DNA from: an uncultured Candidatus Saccharibacteria bacterium
GTDB lineage: Bacteria > Patescibacteriota > Saccharimonadia > Saccharimonadales > Saccharimonadaceae
Length of the DNA stretch: 64,000 nucleotides
Direction of reading: 5' to 3'
Assembly (NCBI GenBank): GCA_964514875.1
Contig: CAZETG010000001.1
Coordinates: 12,187-76,186, forward strand
Of this stretch, positions 3,156 through 62,776 are shown one piece after another. Below the pieces are notes generated by a model. It made no database searches. It worked only from the letters and a program-made list of their open reading frames with translations, and was not told the DNA's origin. Both the position numbers and the translations under genes were made by a program. Each line of letters starts with the position of its first letter. Position 1 is the first letter of the stretch.

Positions 3156-3365
3156 TACCATTATCCATACCGTACTAGACAGCGGAGGGGGAAGCCTGCC
3201 CAACGAGGGGCATCATAAGATGAGTAAGTGTTTGAACTATGAAAGTCGAGAGCAAAGATGCGTTCAAATGCTGGAGCAATATACGCGCGAGAAGACCAAG
3301 AAGTCGCACTAGTGCCAGTGAATTGACTTAGGTGACCGCCATTATAAATTGCATCGCTCCGCACA
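3156..3365 (-). repeat. PLRCLVR cassette c1 (silent CLec/FISUMP-like C-terminal coding module)
   Basis: On the minus strand: 5' TTTGTGCGGAGCGATG and 3' CCCCTCCGCTGTCTAGTACGGTATGGATAATGGTA. Length 210 nt. Frame reads VRSDAIYNGG..SWSSR..GFPLRCLVR. The TAG is mutated to TAT, so the frame stops at the TAA of GGATAA. Confidence 0.85.
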
Positions 3366-3444
3366 AATGACAAACGAACATTTCTGATGTAGAGCTGCAA
3401 AATTTAGAAAACAACTTTTTCAATTTCAGAGTAGAAAAGTGTAG

Positions 3445-3450
3445 TATAAT
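3445..3450 (+). promoter_or_regulatory. -10 box (TATAAT) 7 nt upstream of the gatC ATG; leaderless-type promoter
   Basis: Sequence is gtagTATAATaaaaaatATG with no SD in between. Confidence 0.55.
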
Positions 3451-3457
3451 AAAAAAT

Positions 3458-3745
3458 ATGGAAGTTAATCAGGAAGTTATTGCTCATCTCGCTGAGCTGT
3501 CAAATTTTGCCTTAACCGCGCAAGAAAGCGAGCACTTGGTCACGGATCTAAATGGTATCATTAATTATATTTCACAACTTGATGAGCTTGACACGAAGGG
3601 AATTGAGCCGACTTATCAAGTTTTTGAAATGGAAAATATTTGGCGCGCGGATGAAATTTTATCGCAAGAAGCTGACCGTGAGCAACTTCTGAGCTTAACT
3701 AAGCAAACTCAAGACCATCAAATTAAAGTGCCAAAAGTGCTCTAG
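3458..3745 (+). CDS. gatC: Asp/Glu-tRNA amidotransferase subunit C
   Basis: 95 aa with the GatC pattern (LAELSNFALT..ESEHL..DLNGIINYISQLDELDTKGIEPT..WRADE), directly upstream of gatA. Confidence 0.85.
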   Translation: MEVNQEVIAHLAELSNFALTAQESEHLVTDLNGIINYISQLDELDTKGIEPTYQVFEMENIWRADEILSQEADREQLLSLTKQTQDHQIKVPKVL

Positions 3746-3753
3746 GAGAAAAC

Positions 3754-5205
3754 ATGAAGATCGCAAGCAAAACCATTAGCGCGGTTTCTCTGGTGCAAGA
3801 AGCTCTGAAAAAAGCGCACAAATTCCAGGAAACGCATCATATTTTTACTTTTTTGAACGATGTCGAGGCGCTCAAAAAAGCCGCCGCTATTGACGAAAAA
3901 ATCAAGCAAGGCGAGCCAGTCGGTAAATTGGCAGGCGTGCCGTATGCCTTGAAAGATAACTTCCTCAGCCCAGAAGGTGAGACGACGGCTTCGGCGCACA
4001 TTCTCGAAGGTTTTATTAGTCCGGTGACGGCGACGGCCGTAAAAAAGCTCGAGGCTGAGGGCGCGATTATGATCGGACGTACAAATATGGATGCCTTTGC
4101 GCACGGTTCGAGTACGGAGAATAGCTATTTTGGCCCGACCAAAAATTCACGCGATCTTGAACGCGTAGCGGGCGGCTCCTCTGGTGGCTCGGCAGTGGCG
4201 GTAGCGCTCGATATTGTGCCGTTTGCGACTGGCACCGATACTGGCGGCTCGATTCGTCAGCCAGCTTCGTTCAACGGAATTTATGGCTTGAAGCCGACTT
4301 ATGGTACGGTTTCTCGCTACGGCGTCGTGGCGATGGCTTCGAGTACGGATTGCGTTGGCTTTTTCGCGCAAGCTCCTGAAGATATTGATTTACTGATGCG
4401 AATTACTGCTGGACAAGATCCGAATGATTTGACGACTCTGCCGGATTATTATGGTAAGGACACGGATAGTTTTGACGACCCAGTCAAGAAAATTGGCATT
4501 ATTAAGGATTTTGATAACGATGCGGTCTCGCCGGCGATTCAGAAAGCTCTGCATGATAAGATTGATGAGCTGAAAGCGAAGGGCCACGAAATTGTCTATC
4601 TCGACATGCCAGCTCTGAAATATGCGCTCGCAGCATATTATATTATTGTTCCAGCTGAAATTGCCAGCAATCTTTCTCGTCATGACGGTATTCGTTATGG
4701 TTTTCGAAGCGAAGATTCTGGTGATCTGAAAAAACTTTACGAAAATACGCGTAACGAAGGTTTTATGCCAGAAAATAAGCGGCGTATTATGATCGGAAAC
4801 TTCGTCTTGTCGTCCGGGTTTTACGATGCGTATTATCTGAAGGCGGCTAAAGCGCGCACATTGATTATTGAAGAATATAATCGCGCCTTTGAGAAGTGTG
4901 ATTTTATCTTGACGCCGGTTAGTCCGAATCCAGCCTTCAAACTTGGCGAAAAAGTCGACGATCCGGTGGCGATGTATCTCGAGGATATGATGTCAGTATC
5001 ATTGAACCTTGCCGGTGTGCCCGGATTAACCATTCCAGCAGGTGAGACCGCAGATGGCATTGCACTCGGCTTACAATTAGTTGGTCCGCGCCGTAGCGAT
5101 GCTGTGTTATTGAAGTTCGCCGCGGAAATGAGCGTAAATATTGATGAAGCAGCAACGGCGAGCATAGAGGATGAAAGTACGGATATCTTTGGAGGTGACG
5201 ATTAA
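3754..5205 (+). CDS. gatA: Asp/Glu-tRNA amidotransferase subunit A
   Basis: Amidase signature GGSSGGSA..GTDTGGSIRQPA; 483 aa. Confidence 0.95.
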   Translation: MKIASKTISAVSLVQEALKKAHKFQETHHIFTFLNDVEALKKAAAIDEKIKQGEPVGKLAGVPYALKDNFLSPEGETTASAHILEGFISPVTATAVKKLEAEGAIMIGRTNMDAFAHGSSTENSYFGPTKNSRDLERVAGGSSGGSAVAVALDIVPFATGTDTGGSIRQPASFNGIYGLKPTYGTVSRYGVVAMASSTDCVGFFAQAPEDIDLLMRITAGQDPNDLTTLPDYYGKDTDSFDDPVKKIGIIKDFDNDAVSPAIQKALHDKIDELKAKGHEIVYLDMPALKYALAAYYIIVPAEIASNLSRHDGIRYGFRSEDSGDLKKLYENTRNEGFMPENKRRIMIGNFVLSSGFYDAYYLKAAKARTLIIEEYNRAFEKCDFILTPVSPNPAFKLGEKVDDPVAMYLEDMMSVSLNLAGVPGLTIPAGETADGIALGLQLVGPRRSDAVLLKFAAEMSVNIDEAATASIEDESTDIFGGDD

Positions 5206-5624
5206 TGTGGCCGCCAGTAGTCTTTTTGATTATTGCAATCGTTGCTGTCGGATTGCTAGTGCTGGTCGCCATGGTGCTCAATGGCAAGCGCGGCCCTAGC
5301 TTTGATGTCCAAGATTATCAAACCCGCTGGCTCAAAATCGAAAATAGTCTCGTCAAGGGCGATCCACGTAGCTATAGTCTCGCGATTATGGATGCCGATA
5401 AGCTGCTGGATCGTGCACTGAAGGAAATGGGGCTCTCCGGTAAAACCATGGGCGAGCGCATGAAAAAAATCAATGATCATTTTTCTGATGTAAATCGCGT
5501 ATGGTATGCGCACAAAATCCGCAATCAGTTAGCACATGAACAAGATTTTGAAATAGATTATACGACGGCGAGTCGCGCTTTGACGGCGTTTCGGCAAGCA
5601 TTAAAAGATTTAGGAGCGATTTAG
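5205..5624 (+). CDS. Membrane-anchored hypothetical protein, possible DUF4145/HEPN-like domain
   Basis: N-terminal TM helix (VVFLIIAIVAVGLLVLVAMVL). C-terminal helical domain carries IRNQLAH, an Rx4H motif. TAATG overlap with gatA, and its stop abuts the gatB ATG. Confidence 0.6.
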   Translation: MWPPVVFLIIAIVAVGLLVLVAMVLNGKRGPSFDVQDYQTRWLKIENSLVKGDPRSYSLAIMDADKLLDRALKEMGLSGKTMGERMKKINDHFSDVNRVWYAHKIRNQLAHEQDFEIDYTTASRALTAFRQALKDLGAI

Positions 5625-7043
5625 ATGACAAAATATCTTCCGACTATTGGTATCGAATGCCATGTCCAACTTTCCACTAAGACGAAACTTTTTTCCGAAG
5701 TTGATAATGATGCGCGCTTGAAGGAGCCGAATTCCTGTGTTTCGCCAATTGATTATGCTTTGCCAGGCATGTTACCGCGCTTGAACGAAGCAGCGATATA
5801 TTATGCGGTCAAGGCAGGTTTGGCGCTGAATTCGGAAATTAATCTCGAATCACGGTTTGATCGCAAGCATTATTATTATCCAGACTTGCCAAAAGGTTAT
5901 CAAATTACACAAATGTTTCATCCGATCATTGGTGCTGGCTACGTTGAACTACCTGACGGCACGAAAATCCGGATTGAACATGCTCACCTCGAGGAAGACG
6001 CTGGTAAACTCAGCCATGAATCGACTTACAGCCTCGTCGACTTAAATCGTGCTGGCACGCCGCTAATCGAAATCGTCTCACAGCCAGACATCCATTCTGC
6101 TGCGCATGCGCGTGATTATACGAAGGAGCTTTGGCGTCTGATGACTTACGCAGGCGTGACTTATGGCGATTTATATAATGGTAATATGCGTTTTGATGTC
6201 AATATTAGCCTGGCGCCTGAAAATAGCAAGGAGCTCGGTACGCGCGCGGAAATTAAAAACTTAAACTCTTTCCGTAGCGTTGAGCGTGCTGTTGAATACG
6301 AGATCAAGCGTCAGACCAAGCTGCTCGACAAGGGCAAAAAAGTGCTCCAGGAAACTCGTGGCTGGAGTGATGCGACCGGAGAGACGACCAGTCAGCGCAG
6401 TAAGGAGGCCGCGCAAGATTACCGCTATATGCCCGAGCCGGATGTGCCGCCGATTCGCCTCGCGCCAGAAGTAGTCGATCAAGCTCGTGCTGAGCTGAAG
6501 AAAATGCCAGCACAGTATCGCACTGAGTTGAAAGATATACTTGGTAGCGATATCTTGGAAATTTTACTCGATTATCAGCCGCTGATGGAAAAACTCGACG
6601 AATTAGAAGACGAAAAAGCCATTAAAAAAGTCGGGAATTGGTTCTCTTCGGTGCTTCTCGCGGAAGAAAATACTAGCTTGCTTAATGATCGCTTACCGAC
6701 GAAAGAGCAATTGCTGGATCTGGTCGATATGGCCCAAAAGAATGAGCTGTCTAGTACTGGCGCTAAGGAAGTTTTTCTCAAATTCTTCGATCCGGAAATG
6801 TGTTTCAAGGAGACGCGCACGATTGCCAAAGAGTTAGGCGTAATTCAGGAAAATGATCTCGGCGCGCTCGAGCAGATCGTTGATACTGTACTAGCTAAGC
6901 CCGAGACCGCCAAAGCACAAGCTGATTACAAAGCTGGCCAAGAAAAAGTCCTCGGTTTCTTGGTTGGCCAAGTCATGAAAGAATCGAAAGGCAAGGCTAA
7001 TCCGTCCTCGGTTCAAGAAATTCTGAAAGCGAAGCTTAAATAA
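5625..7043 (+). CDS. gatB: Asp/Glu-tRNA amidotransferase subunit B
   Basis: IGIECHVQLSTKTKLF N-terminus and a GatB/YqeY C-terminal tail; 472 aa. Confidence 0.95.
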   Translation: MTKYLPTIGIECHVQLSTKTKLFSEVDNDARLKEPNSCVSPIDYALPGMLPRLNEAAIYYAVKAGLALNSEINLESRFDRKHYYYPDLPKGYQITQMFHPIIGAGYVELPDGTKIRIEHAHLEEDAGKLSHESTYSLVDLNRAGTPLIEIVSQPDIHSAAHARDYTKELWRLMTYAGVTYGDLYNGNMRFDVNISLAPENSKELGTRAEIKNLNSFRSVERAVEYEIKRQTKLLDKGKKVLQETRGWSDATGETTSQRSKEAAQDYRYMPEPDVPPIRLAPEVVDQARAELKKMPAQYRTELKDILGSDILEILLDYQPLMEKLDELEDEKAIKKVGNWFSSVLLAEENTSLLNDRLPTKEQLLDLVDMAQKNELSSTGAKEVFLKFFDPEMCFKETRTIAKELGVIQENDLGALEQIVDTVLAKPETAKAQADYKAGQEKVLGFLVGQVMKESKGKANPSSVQEILKAKLK

Positions 7044-8986: not shown

Positions 8987-9007
8987 AAGAAGATATCTTA
9001 TCTATCT

Positions 9008-9036
9008 ATTATAGCACATGCGATCGAAAAAGTCAA
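9008..9036 (-). promoter_or_regulatory. Consensus sigma70-type promoter (TTGACT-17-TGcTATAAT) with no downstream gene on its strand
   Basis: Minus strand reads TTGACTttttcgatcgcatgTGCTATAAT. It fires toward the 3' end of the plus-strand helicase gene. Confidence 0.55.
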
Positions 9037-9234: not shown

Positions 9235-11334
9235 ATGGCAAACGAAGTCAAAGACCTAGCAAAGCTCCGCAATATTGGCATTATTGCCCATATTGATGCT
9301 GGTAAAACCACAACGACCGAAGCAATCTTGTATCGCACCGGTCTTAAGCATAAGATTAATCTCGTGAAGGGCGGTGACGGTGGAGCGACGACCGACTGGA
9401 TGGAGCAGGAACGTGAGCGCGGTATTACGATTACTTCTGCCGCCGTTACAGCTTACTGGAAGGGGCACAAGATTAATATTATCGACACTCCAGGCCACAT
9501 CGACTTCACGGCCGAAGTGGAGCGCTCTCTGCGCGTGCTAGATGGTGCGGTGGTAGTCTTTGACGGCAAGATGGGCGTCGAGGCTCAGTCTGAGACGGTT
9601 TGGCGCCAAGCTACCAAGTACGGCGTGCCTCGCATTTGCTTCGTGAATAAGATTAATCAAATCGGTGGCGATTTTTACAAGTCGCTCGATAGCATTCACA
9701 AGCGCCTATCTAAGAACGCTGTAGCAATTCACCTGCCGATTGGCTTCGAGAAGGACGTCTGCGGCGTCGTCGATCTCGTCGATATGAAGGCATATACCTA
9801 TGATGATTATGCCGACCATGAGCTGAAGGTTGGTGAAATTCCGGCTGATATGCTCGAGAAGGCTAAGAACGCTCGGTCATTGCTGATTGAAGAGGCGGTG
9901 CAGGCTGATGAAACCCTGATGGACAAGTTCTTTAATCAAGGCGAAGAGGCGATCACGGAAGTCGAGCTCAAGGCAGCGCTTCGTAAGCGTATCCTCGATG
10001 GAGATTTCTATCTCGTCACCGGCGGCGATGGTCGTGGTGTGATAGTCGAAAAGGTTTTGGATCTTGTGGCAGACTACTTGCCAAGCCCATTGGATCGCGA
10101 TCAGGGCCAGACGGTCGGCGTCGATCCGAAGACTGGCAACCAAGTTGTCCGTAAAGCGAGTGATAGTGAGCCGCTGACGGCGCTTGCCTTTAAGATTGCG
10201 ACGGATCCATTTGTGGGTAAATTGATTTTTATTCGCGTCTATGCTGGCAAGATGACTACCGGTAGTACTGTTCTGAATGCGACAACTGGTGATAAGGAGC
10301 GCATCGGCCGTATTGTACGTATGTTTGCCGATAAGCGCGAAGAAATTTCCGAAATTACGGCTGGGGATATTGCGGCAGTAGTTGGGCTGAAAGACGTAAC
10401 GACTGGGACAACAATCTGTGATGTTGCTCATCCGATTTTGCTCGAGGATATTACCTTCCCAGATCCTCCGGTTTCGATTGCTGTTGAGCCGAAGACGAAG
10501 AGCGATCAAGAAAAAATGGGACTTGGCTTGAGTAAGCTCGCCGAAGAAGATCCGACCTTAAAGATTCACACTGATGAGGAAACCGGCCAGACAATTATTT
10601 CTGGTATGGGCGAGCTACATCTGGAGATTGCGATTGATCGTTTGCAAAAAGAGCATGGTGTCGAGGCGAATACCGGCGCTCCGCAGGTCGCCTATCGCGA
10701 AACTATTCGCGGCACCGCTGAAGCCCAAGGTAAACATATTAAGCAGTCTGGTGGTCGCGGTCAGTACGGCGATGTCTGGGTGAAATTCGAGCCCAATGAG
10801 CCGGGTAAGGGCTTCGAATTTATTGATCAAATTAAGGGTGGCGTTGTACCTCAGGAATATCGTAAGCCAGTTCAGCAGGGTATCGAAGAGACTTTGAATG
10901 GCGGCGTCATTGCCGGCTATCCGGTGGTTGATGTTAAGGCTACGCTTTATGATGGTAGTTACCACGATGTCGACTCTTCCGAACTAGCCTTTAAACTCGC
11001 CGGTAGCTTAGCTACTCGTGAGGGCATCAAGCGCGCCCAGCCAGTCTTACTTGAGCCGATCATGCGTCTTGAAATTACCACACCAGAAGAGTTTATGGGC
11101 GACGTCATCGGCGATGTCAATTCTCGCCGTGGTCGCATCGAAAGCATGGAAGATCTCACTGGCGGCGCGAAGCTGATCAAGGCATTTGCTCCGCTTGCAA
11201 ACCTCTTCGGTTATACTTCCGATCTTCGCTCAATGTCGCAAGGTCGCGCTGTCAGCTCAATGGAGATTAATGGCTACGAGGAAGTACCGCCTAACGTTGC
11301 TCAAGAAATCATCGAAAAACGAAATACGAAGTAG
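9235..11334 (+). CDS. fusA: Elongation factor G
   Basis: [12 protein letters not shown] and DTPGHIDF GTPase motifs, with EF-G domains II-V; 699 aa. Confidence 0.97.
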
Positions 11335-14057: not shown

Positions 14058-14261
14058 TACTTTTATCCCTGCCGTACTAGACAGCGGAGGGGAATAGCGT
14101 TAATTCTTCCGCTGGGTTGAGACACGATGACATTTGTATGAAACTGAAATCTATAAGAGTTACTAACCTTTATCACGAAATCTGAAGTCGCCGTAGTGTA
14201 ATAGCCATATAAACCGGCGCCATTAAGCGCGCTCGTTGTCCAAAGCCAGCCGCTCCGCACG
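14058..14261 (-). repeat. PLRCLVR cassette c2
   Basis: 5' TTTTCGTGCGGAGCGG and 3' CCCCTCCGCTGTCTAGTACGGCAGGGATAAAAGTA. Length 204 nt. TAG is mutated to CAG, so the frame stops at the TAA of GGATAA. It begins about 10 nt after the histidine kinase stop. This is the most diverged copy. Confidence 0.8.
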
Positions 14262-17055: not shown

Positions 17056-17265
17056 CGTGCGGAGCGATGGTGTCTGGAATGATGGTCGTGTTAGACCGAA
17101 CGCGGGCACTAACGCAGTCTTCTGGTCATCTCGCGCGAACTCTACTGCGGACTTTCAGGGCGCCTTCTACCTCTACTTTAATGCTTCAGGCGTCTACCCG
17201 TCCTACCTCGGTAGCCGCTATCGCGGTTATCCCCTCCGCTGTCTAGTACGGTAGGGATAATGGTA
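17056..17265 (+). repeat. PLRCLVR cassette c3
   Basis: 5' CGTGCGGAGCGATGG and 3' CCCCTCCGCTGTCTAGTACGGTAGGGATAATGGTATGAATATGG. Length 210 nt. Frame reads VRSDGVWNDGRVRPNAGTNAVFWSSR..GYPLRCLVR. Confidence 0.9.
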
Positions 17266-23334: not shown

Positions 23335-23343
23335 TGCTATAAT
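23335..23343 (+). promoter_or_regulatory. Extended -10 (TGCTATAAT) 6 nt upstream of the ATG; leaderless-type
   Basis: Sequence is actaTGCTATAATatagctATG. Confidence 0.6.
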
Positions 23344-32800: not shown

Positions 32801-33121
32801 TTATATAAATACCGTTTGCAGCTCGGGTTCTATAAGCTGCTGCTAAATCTTTCGCCAAGTTATCAAAAATACAAAGTCACACACGGACATATCTTGTTCG
32901 TCACGCCCGATAATGACGGTAAAGTTTATGATAAACTTTATGAATTTAATGACGAAGACGAGAAAGAGCTGAAACAATTAATTGAAAAGGTCTACTGGCA
33001 GATCACGAGCTTGAATTTCGTCCAAGACCCAGACGTCTTTTTACCGAGTGATGCCAATAATGGCATGAAGCAAATTCGCGAGTTTGTTACCAAAATACTC
33101 GAAACACCAATGTCAGAATAA
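29816..33121 (+). CDS. UvrD-like helicase fused to a C-terminal PD-(D/E)XK nuclease (AddA/RecB-like)
   Basis: AGPGTGKT, ILLDEFQDTN, AFKSKGLEFKHVFL and LLFVAMTRAKQSL motifs. C-terminal GTLDHIHID..IEIYDFKTGK; 1101 aa. Confidence 0.85.
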   Translation: MPLNTEQKRAVEYLAGPLLVLAGPGTGKTQLLSAKVAYILEQTDANPENILCLTFTEAGARNMRDRLQSMIGKAAQDVNIYTYHAFSKDLLDRYQNYAESMDRKIESTIDDTLQYKIVAEIQNKLPAMDILRNAPIKDIISTIGNAKSARLSSADLQKIAEQNIQDSNDISLEISPILETAPKRCKFNIAVEQIYQPILAILAKYISAQPIVGNIERIANALTRELNQIIEKESAVTRPSVSVLTKWRDKRFEKDSDGNYRLKDHIANKKLLSLAQIMQKYDARLQQDGLYDFDDMIEWTIQYLKQDRGFRLSLSELFQYILLDEFQDTNTSQFELIKLLTDYERPAVMAVGDDDQAIYAFQGANASNLMDFQEHYRAEIISLVKNYRSTGEILSLSRKIADQIVDSFANSYDNVDKTLVSMQDEMNGVTDKSSISRHEFACPEAEYYWVAKQIRTLVKSGEDPSEIAILAPKHKNLVAIVPYLKAQNLEIAYEKRENLLQDTQLQMIIKLAEFVQQLAEGKQPAHQVLELLSFEFWNFPALEVVGLFNERRISQNILKLLESNENFTPLAQFLADLVVKSTTAPLELMLDYLIGNLELNGYTSPFLQYYQAKFSDAELLEFYESLATFRQTVLSHAHTLHPEQSNFAPKLADFVATIRDYENAEAEIMRISNYRDSSSAIQVMTAFKSKGLEFKHVFLTSVDDTAWGKAKGNNNLLALPCNLIQIRHTGISDDEKLRLLFVAMTRAKQSLTMTNSQLTSDGKNINRLSYLHESSPEDVAQLSTFLPEAAQEIHMHCDELSTEQKIETLRTDWVSHYQQQIPAVAEILKARVENYRMTATTLTSFIDLVYAGPRTIYARNILHSPDEPATPSECYGTLVHRVFEQITSQAIDDQTALDQFRNAVPQTVLDYDDQQKLLEAGLHNLKIALREFGPILRHGHAKAEVNLSPEHPTLNGIPLAGTLDHIHIDSANKTIEIYDFKTGKYRSEKWDRHPSLYKYRLQLGFYKLLLNLSPSYQKYKVTHGHILFVTPDNDGKVYDKLYEFNDEDEKELKQLIEKVYWQITSLNFVQDPDVFLPSDANNGMKQIREFVTKILETPMSE

Positions 33122-33129
33122 GGTAATGC

Positions 33130-33158
33130 TTGCAGTTTTGTATGCGACGTAGTAAAAT
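33130..33158 (+). promoter_or_regulatory. Promoter TTGCAG-17-TAAAAT
   Basis: TTGCAGttttgtatgcgacgtagTAAAAT, immediately after the helicase-nuclease stop. Confidence 0.45.
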
Positions 33159-33317
33159 ACAGACATACCGAGCGATATCAGACGAATAAACACTTGGTTG
33201 TTGTACCCATTTCCACGAGCAGCACTCTAAGAGGTGATGGCTAAACAAAAAACTGTTTTTCCGTAATATGTCGATTCGGTAGTAATTTAGTGGATTTACA
33301 CGAAGGGGGTGACATGA

Positions 33318-33491
33318 TTGGCAACTACGTACAATGACAAGTTTGGACGGCCGCATTTGACGGAAGACGAAGCGCGTTTAGCGTCTTACAGCACCGCTCA
33401 CGGTCAATACACCGCCAATGACGGAAGGGTATTTACGACTGAGCGTGAGCTGCAGGAATATTATCTGAAGAAAGAACGCGGCCTCGCCTAA
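33318..33491 (+). CDS. Small hypothetical protein (57 aa, TTG start)
   Basis: Strong SD GAAGGGGGTGA 5 nt upstream of the TTG. Open frame ..TEDEARLASYSTAHGQYTANDGRVFTTERELQEYYLKKERGLA. A terminator lies downstream. This ORF is below the ORF-track size cut-off. Confidence 0.3.
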   Translation: MATTYNDKFGRPHLTEDEARLASYSTAHGQYTANDGRVFTTERELQEYYLKKERGLA

Positions 33492-33575
33492 GGACGAGCG
33501 CTAACCGCGCCGTACAATCAACAATCCCAAGGGACATCGGGTTCCATATTTAAAATTCACTCATTTACTGACCTC

Positions 33576-33601
33576 GGGGCGACTTTATGTCGCCCCATTT
33601 T
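33576..33601 (+). terminator. Rho-independent terminator
   Basis: GGGGCGAC-tttat-GTCGCCCC followed by ATTTT. Confidence 0.7.
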
Positions 33602-33689
33602 CAAGATCCTAGAGACCACGCCATAGGAGAAGAGACGGCATGCAGCCAGTGAGTCTCATATAGTTGTACATACGTCTATTCTATCTTCT

Positions 33690-33899
33690 TACCATTATCC
33701 CTATCGTACTAGACAGCGGAGGGGAATATTCATCCAACGCTGATCAATACTAATAGGATAAACATTTGTAGCATTAAAATAAAGGCTGGACGCACTTTGG
33801 AAATCTGCGTTAGGTAACGCACGCGACGACCAAAAAACCGCATGTGTACCGGTATTTTGACCAATCCACCCCACTTCCCAAACCGCATCGCCCCGCACT
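33690..33899 (-). repeat. PLRCLVR cassette c4
   Basis: 5' AGTGCGGGGCGATG (one A>G change) and 3' CCCCTCCGCTGTCTAGTACGATAGGGATAATGGTAAGAAG. Length 210 nt. Frame reads VRGDAVWEVGWIGQNTGTHAVFWSSR..IPLRCLVR. Confidence 0.9.
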
Positions 33900-33971
33900 A
33901 GGTGACAGAAAAATTTGGTAAAATACTCATCGATTCTTACGTAACCTTAATCTATGCATAAAAAATCCGAA

Positions 33972-34011
33972 ATACCAAAAAACGCCGAATAAACTCGGCG
34001 GATTTTGGTAT
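33972..34011 (-). terminator. Rho-independent terminator of rpmE2
   Basis: The minus-strand RNA folds as AUACCAAAAUCCGCCGA-guuuau-UCGGCGUUUUUUGGUAU, with a U-run. Confidence 0.65.
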
Positions 34012-34018
34012 GATACGA

Positions 34019-34357
34019 TTATTTTTCGTCAACAGATTTAGCAGCCTTCTTGGCAGCTTCTTTCTCGGCTTTCTTCGTTTTATTACCGAGCGAAGCGCGC
34101 AACGTGGCGGCTCTTTCGGCGCGAGCCTTGAAGCGATCGACACGCCCCTCAGTATCGATAATCTTTTCTTCACCGGTAAAGAATGGGTGCGAAGCGGACG
34201 AAATCTGGATCTTGACCAAAGGATATTCATTGCCATCTTCCCACTTGATAGTCTCCTCACTCTTAGCCATAGATCGCGTCAAGAACGAAAAATTCGCTGC
34301 CTCATCCATAAAGACGACATAGCGATAATCTTGTGGTTGTGAAACTTTATTACTCAT
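34019..34357 (-). CDS. rpmE2: 50S ribosomal protein L31 type B with a Lys/Ala-rich tail
   Basis: [39 protein letters not shown] pattern, with no CxxC zinc motif. Confidence 0.85.
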
Positions 34358-39392: not shown

Positions 39393-39401
39393 TGTTATAA
39401 T
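39393..39401 (+). promoter_or_regulatory. Extended -10 (TGTTATAAT) 10 nt upstream of the proS ATG
   Basis: Sequence is gtgTGTTATAATataagtcattATG. Confidence 0.55.
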
Positions 39402-48453: not shown

Positions 48454-48462
48454 TGCTATAAT
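48454..48462 (+). promoter_or_regulatory. Extended -10 (TGCTATAAT) 6 nt upstream of the uppP ATG; leaderless-type
   Basis: Sequence is cttaTGCTATAATaatattATG. Confidence 0.6.
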
Positions 48463-48468: not shown

Positions 48469-49275
48469 ATGAATTTAATCCAGGCAATTATTTTAGGTTT
48501 CATTCAAGGTATTACCGAATTTATTCCAGTCTCCTCATCTGGTCACCTTGAGCTTGCGCGCTATATTCTTAATCTTCCTGCCGATAATTATCATCTTTTT
48601 TTAGAATTTATTAACCTCGGCACACTACTAGCACTTTTGATCTATTTTCGCAAGCGCATCTGGAAAATTCTCAAAAACGTTTTTTCAGAGCGTAACTACA
48701 AGCTCGCAATCAACATCGTCATCACCAGCATTCCAGCTGGGTTAGTCGGTTTACTTCTCGGCGGTTTTATCGAGGACAATCCATTTTTTGGCTCTTTATA
48801 TACAGTTAGTATTGCAATGGGCATCGTCGGTCTAATCATGATTGCCATTGATAAAATACCGCACCTATCCAAGCTCAAAAATGAAAATGAGCTGACGCCT
48901 GGGCGAGCCCTCGCCATTGGTTTATGTCAAATTTTCGCCCTCATTCCTGGTACTTCCCGTTCTGGCACGACTATCATTACCGGTCGCCTCGTCGGTCTCG
49001 ATTCCGAATCAGCCGCCGAATACTCATTTCTCGCTTCAATTCCAATTATGTGCGGCGTTTGTCTCAAAATGTTCCTTTCGTCGACGGGGCGAACCTACTT
49101 CATCGATAACCTCGGCATTTTACTAATAGGGAACCTAGTTGCTTTCGTCGTTGGTCTATTTGCGTTGCATACGCTCCTCGCCTATCTCAAAAAACCTAAG
49201 TCTCTACAGACTTTTGGTAAATACCGCGTTATCCTCGCTTGTATCGTTTTGGGCACACTGCTCATACTTGCGTGA
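48469..49275 (+). CDS. uppP: Undecaprenyl-diphosphatase (BacA)
   Basis: GFIQGITEFIPVSSSGHL and PGTSRSGTTI motifs. Confidence 0.9.
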   Translation: MNLIQAIILGFIQGITEFIPVSSSGHLELARYILNLPADNYHLFLEFINLGTLLALLIYFRKRIWKILKNVFSERNYKLAINIVITSIPAGLVGLLLGGFIEDNPFFGSLYTVSIAMGIVGLIMIAIDKIPHLSKLKNENELTPGRALAIGLCQIFALIPGTSRSGTTIITGRLVGLDSESAAEYSFLASIPIMCGVCLKMFLSSTGRTYFIDNLGILLIGNLVAFVVGLFALHTLLAYLKKPKSLQTFGKYRVILACIVLGTLLILA

Positions 49276-49466
49276 GGAAGCCGATCTGACGTATATCTCA
49301 TTTTACACCGGCACTCTCCGACACTTTTCTAGGCAGTCAACTAGTTAGTGTTACTCAATAGTCTCCTCTGAAGACATTTCACATGATAAAATCAGACAAA
49401 AACGTATAAATCGCCCCAAATAATGGTATATTAGTTGAGATATCGTAGTTTTTAGCAAAAACGTTA

Positions 49467-49495
49467 TTGACTTTTTAGATAAAGTATGCTACAAT
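49467..49495 (+). promoter_or_regulatory. Consensus promoter TTGACT-17-TGcTACAAT
   Basis: TTGACTttttagataaagtaTGCTACAAT, about 115 nt upstream of the small membrane-protein gene. Confidence 0.65.
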
Positions 49496-49611
49496 AGTCA
49501 GAGGATAGTGTATGAATGAAGCCAATTCTGACCAAATTATCCACCGTCCAACCTCACACCGTTCTTTCATAGCCTGACCACCACATTCTGAAAACAAAAG
49601 GAGTTGTCTGT

Positions 49612-49854
49612 ATGTTCCTGTTTCTTTTCAACGTCATAGGCGTTATCGCCGAGTTCATCATCTATATTTACTGTAGCAAGTTTCGGCAGGACAAGCGCAG
49701 CGGGCCTCAAAAGTTCGGGCTCAAGATCGCGCAATATGTGATCTACACTGTACTTATTATGATCCCGCCATACCTTTTCTATCCCAACGAGACAGCCGGT
49801 GTTCCACTCGTTATTGGCGCCATATTCTTCTTGGTATTGTCGCACAGAGGGTAA
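49612..49854 (+). CDS. Small hypothetical membrane protein (80 aa, 2-3 TM helices)
   Basis: SD AAGGAG 8 nt upstream, hydrophobic segments, and its own promoter and terminator. Confidence 0.5.
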   Translation: MFLFLFNVIGVIAEFIIYIYCSKFRQDKRSGPQKFGLKIAQYVIYTVLIMIPPYLFYPNETAGVPLVIGAIFFLVLSHRG

Positions 49855-49889
49855 ATTCTCACAAGACACGAGGTCAGGTTATCATTTTT

Positions 49890-49925
49890 GCCGCCACCAA
49901 TCCGTGTGGCGGTTTCCCTTTTCTT
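49890..49925 (+). terminator. Rho-independent terminator
   Basis: CCGCCAC-caatccgt-GTGGCGG followed by TTTCCCTTTTCTT. Confidence 0.6.
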
Positions 49926-50109
49926 CAACAGTACTATATGCTTGCTCTTCTGTCACTTCATGTCAGAAATATCTACACATCCTCCAAAAGTAAGAGTCAT
50001 ATCCTTGCTTCTCTCTGGTACTTGCCTCTTTTGTTATCTCGTACCGAGAATAACCGTATATCCTCAAGCATCAGAGTAATATTCTCATTATGATGGATAT
50101 TTACCATTG

Positions 50110-50322
50110 CGTGCGGAGCGGTTGTATGCATTATCTCCCCGGATCAGCCTTCCCCGGAATAGACGCAAGAATTTGGTCATCCCGTGCAATACTCACCGGT
50201 GAAGACTACGAAAATGCAAGCTATGATTTCTTCTTCAATCTCCTTAGCCTAGACTCACGACATTACAATCCACGCAATATGGCCTTTCCCCTCCGCTGTC
50301 TAGTACGGTAGGGATAATAGTA
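50110..50322 (+). repeat. PLRCLVR cassette c5
   Basis: 5' CGTGCGGAGCGG and 3' CCCCTCCGCTGTCTAGTACGGTAGGGATAATAGTAGGAAGG. Length 213 nt. Frame reads VRSGCMHYLPG..IWSSR..AFPLRCLVR. Confidence 0.9.
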
Positions 50323-50366: not shown

Positions 50367-50579
50367 CGTGCGGAGCGGAACCATCCTATACACCGGTAAA
50401 TCCAACGGTTACACTGGCGAGCAGGCCTTCTTTTCGTCGTCCCGTGTTGGTACCGACGCCAGTTTTCAGTACAGTATTAACTTATTCTTTAACGCTTCAA
50501 CTATTCACTCGTCTAATCCCGGCAATCTCCGGTATTGGGGCTACCCCCTCCGCTGTCTAGTACGGTAGGGATAATGGTA
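50367..50579 (+). repeat. PLRCLVR cassette c6 (tandem with c5, 44-nt spacer)
   Basis: 5' TTCGTGCGGAGCGG and 3' CCCCTCCGCTGTCTAGTACGGTAGGGATAATGGTAGGAAC. Length 213 nt. Frame reads VRSGTILYTGK..FFSSSR..GYPLRCLVR. Confidence 0.9.
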
Positions 50580-50732
50580 GGAACCATAAACATCATTGAT
50601 CGTCATTCAAGATTTAAACTGGTCAAGCTTGCTATTTTACTGGCATTTTGATAAACTAGAGTAGTTGTAAGGGGTAAGGTCGATTAGCCGCTGTTGCTAC
50701 CCTGCGCAACGCAGTCTTAAATAGGAGAATTA

Positions 50733-50828
50733 ATGCGTAGCAAAACAAAACGTCCTAGTATGCGCCGGGAAAAGCCTTTTCCGCCAGCGCCATGGCAAGA
50801 ATTTATTCAAATTGAACCTAAATTCTAG
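50733..50828 (+). CDS. Very small basic ORF (31 aa), speculative
   Basis: SD AGGAG 5 nt upstream. Frame reads MRSKTKRPSMRREKPFPPAPWQEFIQIEPKF. A strong terminator lies 18 nt downstream. Confidence 0.25.
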   Translation: MRSKTKRPSMRREKPFPPAPWQEFIQIEPKF

Positions 50829-50846
50829 TTTTATTTATACGCGCCA

Positions 50847-50882
50847 GCCTCATGATATGCCACATATGATGAGGCTTTTTCG
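50847..50882 (+). terminator. Rho-independent terminator
   Basis: AGCCTCATGATATG-cca-CATATGATGAGGCT (one mismatch) followed by TTTTT. Confidence 0.7.
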
Positions 50883-50977
50883 TTCTCAAAAACTAAACAC
50901 CCCAGCCGTTTAAGGTTTTTTGAAATATAAACGTCAAGAAGTCAGGTACGTAGGATATCCCGTTTACCGCACCTTCA

Positions 50978-51187
50978 TACCATTATCCCTACCGTACTAG
51001 ACAGCGGAGGGGAAAACCGTACCAACGGCCAGCGTCATTAAGAGATGGCGTAACAGACACACCATTGAAACGTAGATAGAAGCCAGTAGAAACGCTATCA
51101 TTTGGAGTGGTACGAACCGACCAATAGCAACCATCATTACCAGGCCACCGAGTTCTGCTATCGTAATGAGTATGTCCGCTCCGCACG
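50978..51187 (-). repeat. PLRCLVR cassette c7
   Basis: 5' TTGCGTGCGGAGCGG and 3' CCCCTCCGCTGTCTAGTACGGTAGGGATAATGGTATGAAGG. Length 210 nt. Frame reads VRSGHTHYDSR..YWSVR..GFPLRCLVR. Confidence 0.9.
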
Positions 51188-51327: not shown

Positions 51328-51540
51328 CGTGCGGAGCGGATTTAGTCACGACGAAGGAAAATTGTATGCTCTTGGCGATCAAGGTTACTTATGGTCATCT
51401 AAAACGGGTATAGGCGACACTCTGCAGAGTAACTGGTATTTTATATTCAATTCGGAGACTACCTATACTTCGATTCTAGGTCAGACAAGCCGCTATTACG
51501 GTTTTTCCCTCCGCTGTCTAGTACGGTAGGGATAATGGTA
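51328..51540 (+). repeat. PLRCLVR cassette c8
   Basis: 5' CTCGTGCGGAGCGG and 3' TCCCTCCGCTGTCTAGTACGGTAGGGATAATGGTATGAATAG. Length 213 nt. Frame reads VRSGFSHDEGK..LWSSK..GFSLRCLVR. Confidence 0.9.
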
Positions 51541-52372: not shown

Positions 52373-52381
52373 TGCTATAAT
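52373..52381 (+). promoter_or_regulatory. Extended -10 (TGCTATAAT) 8 nt upstream of the ATG
   Basis: Sequence is tttaTGCTATAATtatatcatATG. Confidence 0.6.
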
Positions 52382-55358: not shown

Positions 55359-55390
55359 AGAAAAATAAGAGTACCTTCTCAACTCTTCGC

Positions 55391-55603
55391 TACCATTATC
55401 CCTACCGTACTAGACAGCGGAGGGGGAAACCGAGCCAGCGTTGATCCCGAAAGGACGGATTTACAGTACCTGAATCAGGAAAATCAAGCCCGAAAGCATC
55501 ATGAAAGCCTTCATCATAGACCGTACGTGAAGACCAAGCGACGATAATAGCGCCAGCATTCGGACTAACACGGCCAACATCCCACACTGAAGCGCTCCGC
55601 ACG
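55391..55603 (-). repeat. PLRCLVR cassette c9
   Basis: 5' TTTTCGTGCGGAGCGC and 3' CCCCTCCGCTGTCTAGTACGGTAGGGATAATGGTAGCGAAG. Length 213 nt. Frame reads VRSASVWDVGRVSPNAGAIIVAWSSR..GFPLRCLVR. Confidence 0.9.
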
Positions 55604-56639: not shown

Positions 56640-56716
56640 TTCTGACAGATAACCCCTTCTCAAAATCAAAAAAGTATGCTAAAATAATGAGAGATTGTAA
56701 ATATAAAGGTTAAATT

Positions 56717-57151: not shown

Positions 57152-57154
57152 TTC

Positions 57155-58315: not shown

Positions 58316-58408
58316 CGGTCATTTTTATAGCCAGAGTCTAGACTAACAGAGATACGTAACCTCCTAAAATTGACCGTTGGTCATTTATATATTACCCATC
58401 CATATTCA

Positions 58409-58621
58409 TACCATTATCCCTACCGTACTAGACAGCGGAGGGGAAAACCGCTAAAGCGATATGTATTGTAATCAGACGGATTAAGTGCTGTAGCACTCAA
58501 AACAAGGCGATATGCGAACATAGCACTGACCACCGGCCCGCTTCGCGATGACCAGACCGCAGTCTCGCGACCAGTCTCTTGACCTACATGGCCGTCGATT
58601 CTAATATATCCGCTCCGCACG
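58409..58621 (-). repeat. PLRCLVR cassette c10
   Basis: 5' GTTCGTGCGGAGCGG and 3' CCCCTCCGCTGTCTAGTACGGTAGGGATAATGGTATGAATATGG. Length 213 nt. Frame reads VRSGYIRIDGH..VWSSR..GFPLRCLVR. Confidence 0.9.
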
Positions 58622-58743
58622 AACGCAAAACGCAAAACGCAATTCGCGTAATCCTATTTACAAATTAAAATTTTATAGTATAATTACACAAAGTGGGCGT
58701 ACTTTAACTCCCCAAATTCTTCTGAAAGGCAGGCTAAAATGCA

Positions 58744-60126: not shown

Positions 60127-60132
60127 ACTCTC

Positions 60133-60160
60133 AGACCCAGACTTAACTCTGGGTCTTTTC
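60133..60160 (+). terminator. Rho-independent terminator of the GH13 gene
   Basis: AGACCCAGA-cttaac-TCTGGGTCT followed by TTTCTT. It abuts the 3' end of cassette c11. Confidence 0.7.
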
Positions 60161-60161
60161 T

Positions 60162-60368
60162 TACCATTATCCCTACCGTACTAGACAGCGGAGGGAAATG
60201 CCGAAGTAGCGGTCACTATTGATAGACGGATTAACTCCTGAAGCAGTAAAACCGAGGTTGAAACTACCTCGCAAGAGAGTATTGGAATAAGCAAGAGAAG
60301 ACCAGCTGAGTTCATCAATACCGGACCATAAAATATGAGCGTCAGGGTATATACGCCCGCTCCGCACG
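60162..60368 (-). repeat. PLRCLVR cassette c11
   Basis: 5' GTTCGTGCGGAGCGG and 3' TCCCTCCGCTGTCTAGTACGGTAGGGATAATGGTAAGAAAAG. Length 207 nt. Frame reads VRSGRIYPDAH..SWSSL..GISLRCLVR. Confidence 0.9.
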
Positions 60369-60476
60369 AACAGAAACCTAGGCATGGATCCCTATATCAG
60401 ATCATAGCACAGAATATCTATCAAAATCTTAGCCAAGAAAAGCCCGGCCAAATGACCGGGCAAAGTGTTTCCTGAA

Positions 60477-61121
60477 TTAGGAATCAAATTGATGCTGATT
60501 TGCAGAATCGTCGTGCGACGTCAGCTCACCAAGATCGTTCATGTTTTCTCCGGAGCGCAAATCATTACGAAGTATATCGGCTCCTGCGCCAAAAGCCTTG
60601 CAAACAATGCGAGCCTCGGCACGCCTAGCGTTTTCTTTCTTCTTTTCCGCGATCACCAAATCAGCCACAACATGACACATCTGACGATGTAACGGCTCAA
60701 ACAAAGCCTTGCAATACCTACCAGCTTTAAAATAAGCCATCATATAACCATAAACAAACGCCTCACGCAGTAGCTTGGGGTTATTATCAGGCAGAAGCAG
60801 GGAGCCAACCAGATATTTCCAAGCAATCTGTTCAATAGTCGTAGGTAACAAGTTGTCGAAGTTACTATCAACAAGGCTACGTCGACACTCGTCATGGGTC
60901 ATAAACAGAAGAGGTGACAAAACGCCCCGGTTATGCAATCCGTAAATATAACCGTCCACAACAGCCGTGTTGCAAGTAAGCGTCTCATAACATGCCATAT
61001 CGCCAACTCTCCAATAAGTCCGCCAGTGAGCCTTCGTATTAGGATATTCAGGCTCCATCATTTCGGCGTCAGTACGTGCCGCCTTAGCCTCCTCGTCGTG
61101 TTTCTGAAATTGCATACTCAT
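60477..61121 (-). CDS. Hypothetical protein (214 aa), no family recognised
   Basis: A long ORF with its own consensus promoter (61265-61293). The coding-like composition is the only other support. Confidence 0.55.
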   Translation of the reverse strand: MSMQFQKHDEEAKAARTDAEMMEPEYPNTKAHWRTYWRVGDMACYETLTCNTAVVDGYIYGLHNRGVLSPLLFMTHDECRRSLVDSNFDNLLPTTIEQIAWKYLVGSLLLPDNNPKLLREAFVYGYMMAYFKAGRYCKALFEPLHRQMCHVVADLVIAEKKKENARRAEARIVCKAFGAGADILRNDLRSGENMNDLGELTSHDDSANQHQFDS

Positions 61122-61264
61122 GGTTTTATCTTCCTTTCATTCAAGTCTCGTCTGCTCACCATGAATGAGCAAACGGTTCCTTGAATCAAAGAAAATTCCA
61201 CAAAATTACACGTATTTCAACATCAACATCTTAAAATTCCAGGCCATCTCCAGCCTATCTTCTC

Positions 61265-61293
61265 ATTATAGCACATATTACGCCAAAAATCAA
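61265..61293 (-). promoter_or_regulatory. Promoter TTGATT-17-TGcTATAAT for the gene at 60477-61121
   Basis: Minus strand reads TTGATTtttggcgtaatatgTGCTATAAT. Confidence 0.65.
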
Positions 61294-61562
61294 TATATTT
61301 TATGATATTTTTGCTTAAATAGCAAAAAATCAGTAATTATACCGTTTTACGCCTTCATCCCAGTTTTTCTCCTTTAAAACTAGCAGAAAATATGATAAAA
61401 TTATTACAAGAAAAGTTGTCCTTTGAAGATCAGCAAAAATCGTGCGAGTTGTAGCAGAAAAGGTCGTAGCAGCTCCGTTAGAAGCTACTGTTTACGGTAG
61501 AATTCCAATTTTAAAAGGAATTGGCAATGGTTTAATCAATTTTAACAAAAACGAAGGAAAGG

Positions 61563-62561
61563 TTGGGTTTGAACTTAAAGATTGGAATCATCGGGCTACC
61601 AAACGTCGGTAAATCGACGCTTTTCAACGCGCTAACTAACGCTGGCGCGCTCGCCGCCAATTATCCTTTTGCGACGATCGAGCCGAACGTCGGCATTGTG
61701 CCAGTGCCAGATTCGCGCTTGGAAGTTTTGGGCAAGATGTACGATACAGAAAAAATTATCCCTGCGACGGTCGAGTTTGTCGATATTGCTGGGCTAGTCG
61801 AGGGTGCTTCGAAAGGCGAAGGTCTGGGCAACAAATTCCTCGCTCACATCCGCGAATGTCAGATTATTTGCCACGTCGTGCGCGTTTTCCAGGACGACGA
61901 TGTCATTCGCGCCGAGGGATCAAAAGATCCTGAGCATGATATTGCTATTATTCAGACCGAGCTTGAGCTCGCCGACCTCGAAACCCGCAAGAAGGCCGAA
62001 GTCAAACGCAAGAAAAACTCTGGCAAAAACACTACCGAAGAAATTATTCCGTATCTCACCGACAAACCGACGATTTTTATATTCAATGTCGACGAAAACG
62101 AGCTCACCGACCAAAGTTTACAGCAAAAATTATCCGCTATGGTCGCACCACATCGAGCTATTTTTATCAACGCCAAGCTTGAGGCCGAAATGTCTGGCAT
62201 GTCCGCCGCCGAACGCAAAGAATTCCTCAAAGAGTACGGCGTTGCAGAAGATGCACTCAGTGAGCTCATCAAAGCCACTTATGATACACTTGGTCTACAA
62301 AGCTTCCTTACCGCCGGTAAGAAAGAAGTCCGCGCCTGGACCATCAAAAAAGGCTCCACCGCCCCGCAAGCCGCCGGCACAATTCACACGGATTTCGAGC
62401 GCGGATTCATCGCCGCCGAGGTCATGAAATATAACGATCTCGTCGAACTCGGCTCCGAGCAAGCCGTCAAAGCCGCCGGCAAACTCCGCACCGAAGGCAA
62501 AACTTACATTATGCAAGACGGCGACATCGTCGAATTCAAATTTAACGTCACCAAAAAATAA
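61563..62561 (+). CDS. ychF: Ribosome-binding ATPase YchF (short form, TTG start)
   Basis: [19 protein letters not shown]1 motif and a C-terminal TGS-like block [39 protein letters not shown]. Confidence 0.9.
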
Positions 62562-62563
62562 TT

Positions 62564-62776
62564 CGTGCGGAGCGGAAGCGCTAATCGTGACGGTTGTGTT
62601 GGTGACTCTGGTCGAGATGGTCATTATCCATCTGATCGAGCAACGGTGATTGAGACGACATTTCCTAGTAGATATGGTATGATGGTCGGAAAATCCAACA
62701 TTTATAGCTCATATTACTGGGCCGACCGTTGGTTCGGTATTCCCCTCCGCTGTCTAGTACGGTAGGGATAATGGTG
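62564..62776 (+). repeat. PLRCLVR cassette c12
   Basis: Begins 3 nt after the ychF TAA, in the same frame. 5' TTCGTGCGGAGCGG and 3' CCCCTCCGCTGTCTAGTACGGTAGGGATAATGGTG. Length 213 nt. Frame reads VRSGSANRDG..GIPLRCLVR. Confidence 0.9.

Follow-up and report, generated by a model that had tools for sequence, protein, structure and literature searches.

Gene-less copies of a FISUMP domain tail in a Saccharibacteria genome and their possible link to diversity-generating retroelements

We analysed a stretch of 64,000 nucleotides (contig CAZETG010000001.1 of assembly GCA_964514875.1, positions 12,187 to 76,186; hereafter the window) from an uncultured Candidatus Saccharibacteria bacterium. Twelve copies of a short coding cassette (c1 to c12) are dispersed over the window, about one per 5 kb, and together they take up about 4% of it. 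The genes around them encode RpoC, GatA, GatB, a UvrD-like helicase, EF-G, glycosyltransferases, a histidine kinase with a response regulator, AddA, ribosomal protein S2, BacA, a DsbA-like protein, a RadA-like protein, RNase HII and an amylase; Pfam scans of 20 open reading frames (ORFs) of the window returned housekeeping functions only. We describe the cassettes and their relatives, and discuss how they may be connected with the diversity-generating retroelements (DGRs) of related Saccharibacteria.

Twelve cassettes carrying the tail of a lectin-like domain

The 17-mer CTCCGCTGTCTAGTACG has 12 exact occurrences in the window, compared with 0.09 expected by chance. This count and a six-frame scan of the whole window with a hidden Markov model (HMM) agree with the positions and strands of the twelve cassettes listed in an earlier note on this DNA, and the scan found no degenerate copy and no full-length gene beyond c1 to c12 (Table 1). 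The lengths given there are correct as well: six cassettes are 213 nt long, four 210 nt, one 207 nt and one 204 nt.

Over the alignment of the twelve copies the mean column identity is 54%. The ends are conserved, and the interiors are about 50% identical with few conserved columns. Aligned together with their flanks, the cassettes have a sharp 5' box, (T)TCGTGCGGAGCG, and a 3' box, CCCCTCCGCTGTCTAGTACGGTAGGGATAATGGTA, which is followed by a looser nGAAnA. The conserved 5' box TTCGTGCGGAGCG encodes F-V-R-S-G, and the conserved 3' block extends 15-18 nt beyond the stop codon. The claim that the ends are uniform holds for the conserved termini in general but not for every base, since c1 starts with TGTGCGG, c4 has one change in the 5' box (GTGCGGGGCG) and single-base variants of the 3' tail are found in c2, c4, c5 and c12. 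In the same way, the skeleton ending in LVR and a stop codon is not shared by all copies, because the TAG stop has been lost in c1 (TAT) and c2 (CAG), both of which end two codons later with TAA.

Each of the twelve copies keeps one open frame of 63-66 codons, as had been noted before (joint chance 5e-15, from shuffled interiors), and each of the other two frames of every cassette contains 1-8 stops. In-frame stops are also present just upstream, about 1-20 codons away, such that the ORFs measured from stop to stop comprise 67-85 amino acids.

Which protein do the cassettes come from? The resemblance to FISUMP domains, pointed out in the earlier note, was confirmed by our searches: a cassette corresponds to the C-terminal third of the Fib_succ_major/FISUMP domain (PF09603, TIGR02145). 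Single cassettes match positions 130-186 of the 187 positions of PF09603 (the last ~57), weakly, with E about 0.04. The best cassette reaches 14.6 bits, which is below the gathering cut-off of 33.9; we therefore consider the cassette a fragment of a domain and not a domain-bearing protein. An exhaustive search with the cassette profile matched 5795 proteins, and among the inspected matches there are multi-domain FISUMP proteins, which align at the C-terminal end of their domains. A second kind is represented by proteins such as P0128, P0192, P0231 and P0238, which end with FF[TA]RSG...GYYWSSRAY...AYNLYF...R..GFSVRCVAR. Full-length relatives of the Saccharibacteria type pass the gathering threshold of PF09603 (66-92 bits compared with 33.9). 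PF09603 presumably belongs among the C-type-lectin-like folds. In the AlphaFold2 (AF2) model of the full-length protein P0236 only the N-terminal beta-sandwich was modelled, and the lectin-like part has a pLDDT of ~30; sequence searches of the PDB found no relative.

Table 1. Positions of the twelve cassettes in the window
Cassette	Unit	Strand	Coding part	Site and remarks
c1	3156..3365	-	3170-3364	VRSD...PLRCLVR; between rpoC and gatA
c2	14058..14261	-	14072-14260	shortest, 63 codons; 11 nt past the stop of the histidine-kinase gene, between convergent genes
c3	17056..17265	+	17057-17251	divergent intergenic region
c4	33690..33899	-	33704-33898	between addA and rpmE/rpsB
c5	50110..50322	+	50111-50308	first in a cluster of four between bacA and the DsbA-like gene
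c6	50367..50579	+	50368-50565	begins 44 nt past the c5 unit, tandem orientation
c7	50978..51187	-	50992-51186	in the c5-c8 cluster
c8	51328..51540	+	51329-51526	in the c5-c8 cluster
c9	55391..55603	-	55405-55602	
c10	58409..58621	-	58423-58620	
c11	60162..60368	-	60176-60367	
c12	62564..62776	+	62565-62762	begins in the codon right after the stop of a 332-aa ORF (61563-62561)

There is no tRNA near the cassettes. The 835 nt (49275-50110) and 399 nt (50579-50978) that flank members of the c5-c8 cluster contain no convincing ORF, tRNA or Rfam match. Directly upstream of c10, GCGTTTT is repeated three times in tandem (~58622-58645, - strand). The C-terminus of the 332-aa ORF before c12 is presumably YchF-like.

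A family of cassettes without genes

In 1.1 Mb of related contigs we found 263 cassette domains in 138 loci. Only about 5 of them lie on long ORFs, and ~97% are gene-less (orphans). The median in-frame extension upstream of the cassette, calculated for 242 family members, is 10 amino acids, and the copies have a sharp 5' edge, which lies no more than 6 amino acids from FVRSG in 140 of 170. Of the cassettes at 198 distinct sites, 183 are strictly intact, another ~6 are intact apart from a variant 5' box, and decay is seen in about 8 (4%), which leaves ~96% intact; all cassette lengths at these sites are multiples of 3.

Among species-representative genomes, true members of the family are present in one only, the Candidatus Saccharibacteria metagenome-assembled genome GCA_964608555.1 ("CAZSPU"); the other eight matches to the 17-mer are due to chance. 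CAZSPU is also the only other genome with a window-type 3' box, and its cassettes lie in tandem arrays, with at least 11 of them in 15 kb of locus L014 and 17 in L015. A spacer of ~100 nt recurs between the cassettes of these arrays (L008 6586-6689, L014 8538-8622 and L014 10705-10806); it starts with TTCGTGC, which resembles the 5' box, and holds the hairpin GAAATAATAGTAAACTATTATTTC.

A second form of the cassette, ending with PLRCLSTVL[GD]M and a stop codon, is very common in metagenome contigs, with more than 120 stretches among the matches listed. We refer to it as the sister lineage. These contigs are taken to be Saccharibacteria, judging from their link to locus L012 and from the family of their reverse transcriptase (RT). 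One assembly, ERZ777305, has at least 37 sister-type copies whose 3' blocks are identical. In JGI metagenome contigs, an exact scan for the window-type tail gave no match.

Relatives of the window genome with an 88% identical ribosomal protein S2 have 0 orphan cassettes in 49.5 kb, compared with 12 in the 64 kb of the window. The order addA - x - rpmE - rpsB - tsf - frr - uppS - rseP is common to the window and these relatives. Between addA and rpmE-rpsB, the relatives (L139-L142, ~1700-4420) encode a full-length FISUMP-type protein of 431 amino acids, which has a signal peptide and ends with SVRCVAR and a stop codon. The same site in the window (33121-34019) has 830 nt with c4 only, on the opposite strand, and no trace of the 431-aa gene. 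We found no recent cassette duplicates in the window lineage.

In other lineages there are also ORFs that consist only of 2-10 in-frame cassettes, arranged head to tail (P0117, P0118, P0122, P0129 and P0131). The five copies in P0118 differ mainly at sites of the Y/H/N/D/S type, which resembles DGR-type variation between tandem copies. An insertion polymorphism of an IS200-type TnpA element was seen between L018 (2500-3208) and L096, in Saccharibacteria contigs that are otherwise 96-98% identical.

The earlier note had described the cassettes as coding segments truncated at the 5' end, without promoter or ribosome-binding site, rather than as genes. Our results agree with this. A Shine-Dalgarno motif precedes only 1 of the 12 cassettes, compared with 18 of 42 genes of the window. 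The extended -10 box TGnTATAAT occurs 11 times in the window where 2.8 occurrences are expected (e.g. 23335-23343, 39393-39401, 48454-48462 and 52373-52381). Since it mostly lies 6-8 nt before an ATG, many genes of the window look leaderless, and other genes use Shine-Dalgarno motifs. This box is absent from the 100 nt upstream of all 12 cassettes. In the CAZSPU arrays, an open in-frame ATG is found at 6 of 22 cassette junctions, which is the level expected by chance. A single cassette shows no fold in an AF2 model (mean pLDDT 51.7, pTM 0.24). The only copy that is present as an exact database protein (P0005) is c11, owing to a chance upstream ATG. Most likely, the cassettes are not translated on their own.

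A search of the cassettes against Rfam at the gathering score gave no match. In the window cassettes, GCGGAG at the 5' end is complementary to CTCCGC at the 3' end. We rejected an RNA helix between the termini, as the 5' box of CAZSPU, GTGCGTAGTG, breaks the pairing with no compensating change; the changes in this box are synonymous (CGG to CGT, AGC to AGT) and F-V-R-S-G is kept. The 3' box of the window can form a weak hairpin (-4.6 kcal/mol, z -0.9), which the full-length gene in L016 does not have. We also considered a phage origin and rejected it, two scans of viral contigs having given no match.

Both boxes are conserved as DNA and not as protein. There is no synonymous variation at the termini of the window cassettes, yet the scaffold does vary: for example, the Ser codons of W-S-S-R are TCT, TCA, TCG or TCC. 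The 3' box pattern ...AGTACnGTA...GGGAT... is common to the window and the sister lineage, which read it in different frames (LVR-stop and LSTVLGM-stop, respectively). The window box, CT-AGTACGGTA and, after an alignment gap, GGGATAATGG, equals the sister-lineage box CTGAGTACTGTATTAGGGATGTGA except for small indels; the frame therefore differs while the bases are kept.

Retroelement footprints in related Saccharibacteria

In the DGR of related Saccharibacteria, a template repeat (TR) is copied with adenine-specific errors into a variable region (VR), the 3' end of a gene for a surface protein. Locus L013 (Candidatus Saccharibacteria, GCA_017515125.1) holds a complete DGR. Its positions 1-3110 contain, in this order, the 3' end of the target gene (P0100 being its cut C-terminus), an ORF of 269 amino acids, an RT of the RVT_1 family and a second copy of the cassette, the TR, on the opposite strand. 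Of 219 nt, 17 are not the same in VR and TR, and the TR has an adenine at each of these 17. By this comparison the two copies are a canonical TR/VR pair. The 269-aa ORF has no Pfam match and is not recognisably Avd. This type of RT is very frequent: a search with it gave 6260 matches at E<=1e-20, and the named entries in the best 120 are all Candidatus Saccharibacteria.

The TR/VR homology in L013 starts 5 nt before the GTG of F-V-R-S-G, and the window cassettes therefore start within ~3 nt of the start of the DGR unit. With this, the statement of the earlier note that the cassettes represent the segment mutated by DGRs found support. The 3' extents differ, as the homology reaches ~57 nt past the stop codon in L013 and 15-18 nt in the window. 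In L013 this region after the stop has a strong predicted hairpin (-14 kcal/mol, z -2.6).

Next to the canonical pair, there are several footprints of DGRs in the sister lineage. In L137, an RT and an accessory ORF lie 1.2 kb from the end of a cassette, whose 100-nt tail is identical to that of a 5'-extended cassette after gyrA in L012. We define a TR-class cassette as one with the 5' box, Asn-rich AAY codons and CCCCTCCGCTG, followed by a tail other than TCTAGTACGGTAGGG. Such Asn-rich cassettes were found in L116 (5297-5560), L055 (1-1500, - strand) and L012 (3967-4185)/L050. They share an upstream leader of ~130 nt and a distinct 3' tail (...CGCTGC-TTTGCCGCGGTGGGTGCCGATCTT), and they diverge right after CCCCTCCGCTG. 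In DGRs, the site for initiation of mutagenic homing (IMH) lies at the end of the VR, and the TR has its own variant, IMH*; the tail of the TR-class cassettes looks IMH*-like. No RT adjoins the TR-class cassettes of L055, L116 and L012 within the locus DNA that we examined. A tRNA-like sequence, judged by eye, follows the one in L055.

Does the adenine-specific signature extend to cassettes other than those of L013? The VR of P0040 differs from the TR of L055 at Asn codons only. In the orphans closest to the TRs, TR adenines account for 40-52% of the mismatches, compared with 19-20% of the TR bases (p down to 3.5e-7), and this bias is 3-5-fold asymmetric. In three orphans, the 3' ~130 nt have 10-11 mismatches at TR adenines and 3-4 elsewhere, and the 5' ~75 nt belong to another subtype. 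According to work on BPP-1, homing is anchored at the 3' end, with an internal crossover on the 5' side. Partial overwriting of the kind seen in these orphans is what such homing would leave.

The variable codon columns have the form NNY in both lineages, and N, Y, D, H, S and G dominate. The amino-acid ratio NAY:NAR is 4.4 in the window cassettes, compared with 1.0 in the housekeeping genes of the window, with K and E depleted. The NNY pattern could also stem from selection on the composition of a binding site.

The earlier note had expected full-length genes that share both ends with the cassettes. They exist in the sister lineage: the full-length P0236 gene (L016) carries the DNA of both cassette ends, and the full-length gene of L127 is cut by the assembly exactly at the cassette. 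For window-type ends we found none. The expression locus that was proposed is absent from the window, and the 114 word-based database matches are all no longer than 117 amino acids. P0026 and P0040 have an identical N-terminus of ~50 amino acids and different 5' subtypes of the cassette, and therefore may be alleles of one locus. P0026 and P0069 are found at an orthologous locus after gyrA. Furthermore, the cassettes are mosaic, with shared 5' subtypes on differing 3' parts. After gyrA in two species (L012 9944-10345 and L138 ~9900-10348) there are remnants of FISUMP genes, unequally truncated at the 5' side, in which the cassette is intact. This shows that the body of a gene can decay while the VR unit persists.

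Possible origins and use of the cassettes

What could be the role of so many gene-less domain tails? There is, in our view, about an even chance that the cassettes are VR-type orphans, acceptors or an archive within a DGR-based system for adhesin diversification, with the two boxes as homing boundaries. The module is the last ~65 codons of the FISUMP lectin-like domain together with ~15-18 nt after the stop codon. Its 5' box, TTCGTGCGGAGCG, may be read as the 5' boundary of homology and its 3' box, CCCCTCCGCTGTCTAGTACGGTAGGGATAATGGTA, as an IMH-like 3' boundary. The system would diversify the binding face of a protein for attachment to the host. The open frames might be kept in one or both of two ways. 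Potentially, the cassettes are written at least partly from a template that is free of stops, where AAY would change to NNY, or a closed cassette may be harmful once it is exchanged with an expressed gene. We could show that the cassettes are homologous to the FISUMP tail, where their unit begins and ends, that they are abundant, largely intact, gene-less and stable between strains, and that orphans of the sister lineage bear DGR footprints. We infer that the genome of the window has its own RT, TR and expressed gene, that the cassettes are still used, and in which direction the information flows.

Several results weigh against this explanation. A search of the six-frame translation of the window with the RT of L013 (phmmer, E<=1e-3) found no DGR RT, and in these 64 kb there is no TR-class cassette and no full-length target gene. 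For window-type ends, no RT, TR or full-length target came up among the 114 word-based matches, in the JGI metagenome contigs or in viral contigs. The window thus lacks an RT, a TR/VR pair with mismatches at adenines and a VR at the 3' end of a gene, three features that define a DGR, and we therefore file the twelve copies as DGR-linked only and not as DGR targets. The adenine bias itself comes from the sister lineage (PLRCLSTVLxM) and not from the lineage of the window (PLRCLVR). Between cassettes of the same genome, 30-46% of the non-adenine positions are different and indels occur, and the ratio of adenine to non-adenine mismatches is 1.4-1.5 with any cassette as the reference. The TR-class cassettes have the highest ratios of their genomes, yet these reach only 1.75-1.9; for the window cassettes the ratios are 1.30-1.48, and none of them is TR-like. 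One TR cannot explain most of the diversity.

Other points of the same kind concern the spread and the present state of the cassettes. Orthologous orphans taken from different samples share 95-100% identity and show no adenine bias; they are therefore not hypermutating now. Their pN/pS is ~0.36, which comes from four informative pairs with only 26 substitutions and hints at constraint at the level of the protein; in these four pairs the cassettes diverge somewhat faster than their flanks. Since the orphans have the VR-type and not the TR-type 3' box, a simple insertion of TR cDNA fails to explain how they spread. Inspection by eye revealed no target-site duplication, and there was no pair of a filled and an empty site among loci that are at least 85% identical: the six indels found there are all unrelated (e.g. 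the IS200-type TnpA).

The features of the cassettes could also be explained in other ways. In one of them, the model of the earlier note, they are a silent donor library that is never expressed itself and from which gene conversion copies entire cassettes or pieces of them into the 3' end of a single expressed FISUMP-type adhesin gene, similar to Neisseria pilS, Borrelia vls or M. genitalium MgPar; any DGR of the lineage would be a separate layer. The conserved flanks, the variable interior, the lack of expression signals and the tandem arrays in the related genome would all be expected, as would the stability of the orphans between strains and their intactness (~96%). There are candidate recipients in the sister lineage (P0236 in L016, and L127), and hints of exchange can be seen in the different subtypes of P0026 and P0040, the orthologous locus of P0026 and P0069 and the mosaic cassettes. 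Nevertheless, neither the window nor the word-based database matches provided an expression locus with window-type ends, the 5' homology measures only ~13 nt, and no transfer from a cassette to a gene was observed. The sole signature with a direction is specific to adenines, which points to reverse transcription and not to recombination. Moreover, reciprocal exchange would rearrange the chromosome, because the cassettes occur on either strand, scattered among housekeeping genes. We think that such a donor library is possible but rather unlikely. A by-product without any function is quite doubtful in our opinion: here, the cassettes would be selfish or inert VR units, duplicated or retro-copied, which persist either because they are young or because the DGR continues to overwrite, in part, any DNA between the two boxes. 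The expansion is indeed specific to a lineage (0 orphans in 49.5 kb of the relatives with 88% identical S2, 12 in the window), the sharp 5' edge coincides with the edge of the TR, 3'-anchored partial overwriting is seen in the sister lineage, ~4% of the copies have decayed, and any orientation relative to the neighbours occurs. However, the interiors are ~50% diverged with many indels, and even so the lengths are multiples of 3 and the frames open (12 of 12 in the window, ~96% overall). The scaffold residues are kept through synonymous changes, and pN/pS is ~0.36. All of this would be difficult to arrive at unless there is selection or frequent rewriting, and the divergence at non-adenine positions argues against frequent rewriting.

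The cassettes could be independent small genes, each encoding a protein of ~65 amino acids that starts at the invariant GTG of V-R-S-G or at a chance ATG upstream. This Val codon is GTG in 45 of 45 copies of the window lineage and in 164 of 169 copies of the sister lineage, ORF finders and gene callers list the cassettes, and the scaffold residues are conserved at the level of the protein. Still, we consider small genes very unlikely, given that a Shine-Dalgarno motif is present at 1 of 12 cassettes and a promoter of the leaderless type at none, and most genes of the window have one or the other. The in-frame ATGs at the junctions of the arrays stay at the chance level (6 of 22), the peptide amounts to one third of a domain with no modelled fold (pLDDT 52, pTM 0.24), and the 3' box, which extends beyond the stop codon, recurs across the lineages in another frame. 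It is hardly conceivable, finally, that the cassettes are a structured noncoding RNA or a DNA transposon similar to miniature inverted-repeat transposable elements, in which case their coding appearance would be incidental. The complementary GCGGAG and CTCCGC of the two ends would suit this idea, and in several lineages the C-rich 3' box can pair with a G-rich tail. The Rfam search gave no match, though, CAZSPU breaks the pairing, and the window has a weak hairpin where L016 has none; there was no sign of terminal inverted repeats or of a target-site duplication, and the codon periodicity, the lengths in multiples of 3 and the frame that is open in every copy speak against this idea.

We come back to the DGR-linked acceptor or archive cassettes and compare them with known systems. 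Closest in operation are DGRs with targets of the C-type-lectin fold (Mtd of BPP-1, TvpA of Treponema, LdtA of Legionella and those of Patescibacteria/CPR), if one imagines a DGR with many remote VRs. The likeness comprises the 5' edge of the cassette at the start of TR and VR, the C-terminal lectin-like segment, the NNY codons, a 3' box conserved as DNA that runs past the stop as an IMH would and, in the sister lineage, orphans with an adenine bias relative to TR-class cassettes. Unlike DGR targets, the cassettes have no gene body, start codon or promoter, they occur about once per 5 kb, most differences between copies are not at adenines, and the window has neither an RT nor a TR. A DGR element may have up to about a dozen targets. 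Most elements in one survey of DGRs had a single VR or a few VRs (PMC11661182), and another large survey was, by its own statement, unable to detect remote targets (PMC8144416).

Similar to the silent cassettes of pilS/pilE, vls/vlsE, MgPar and tprK, ours are parts of coding sequences without a promoter, in which conserved flanks enclose a variable interior; they are stable, form tandem arrays in a related genome and come from an adhesin-type surface protein. They differ from these systems in that our analysis yielded neither an expression site for the window-type cassettes nor conversion tracts, in the short 5' flank (~13 nt) and in their dispersal on both strands over the chromosome. A comparable connection with reverse transcription is not known from the pilS, vls, MgPar and tprK systems. 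Orphan cdiA-CT/rhs-CT modules are truncated at the 5' side, have a conserved junction motif and no start of their own, and are thought to be swapped in by recombination. The cassettes, too, are C-terminal modules that begin at a conserved junction and have no start codon of their own, whereas no immunity gene follows them, they are not clustered downstream of a main gene, and they encode part of a binding domain and not a toxin. The FISUMP family itself (PF09603, TIGR02145) accounts for the alignment with its last ~57 profile positions, yet for only one third of the domain. In full-text searches of the literature, no paper came up in which Saccharibacteria are connected with cassettes of this kind.

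As obligate epibionts, Saccharibacteria must attach to specific host bacteria in order to survive. The cassette family bears on the question of how a genome of ~1 Mb keeps pace with changes of the host. A bolder possibility, one that we would not count as probable, is a heritable library of more than 100 gene-less cassettes spread over the whole genome, into which the DGR writes adenine-mutagenised sequence, with the cassettes exchanging sequence with the TR or with the 3' end of the adhesin gene. If this were true, such a library would couple random hypermutation to a stored "memory" of earlier receptor-binding variants. As a practical matter, two short DNA boxes identify every copy, which gives a handle for population sequencing. 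If the cassettes are functional, they would be a new layer of programmed variation, made of many gene-less VR units that are stable and kept open. The concept of a DGR target would then be widened, because current surveys look for VRs only inside genes next to an RT. Taken as a whole, our results suggest a scattered library of binding-site variants in a bacterium with a tiny genome, by a route not yet described.

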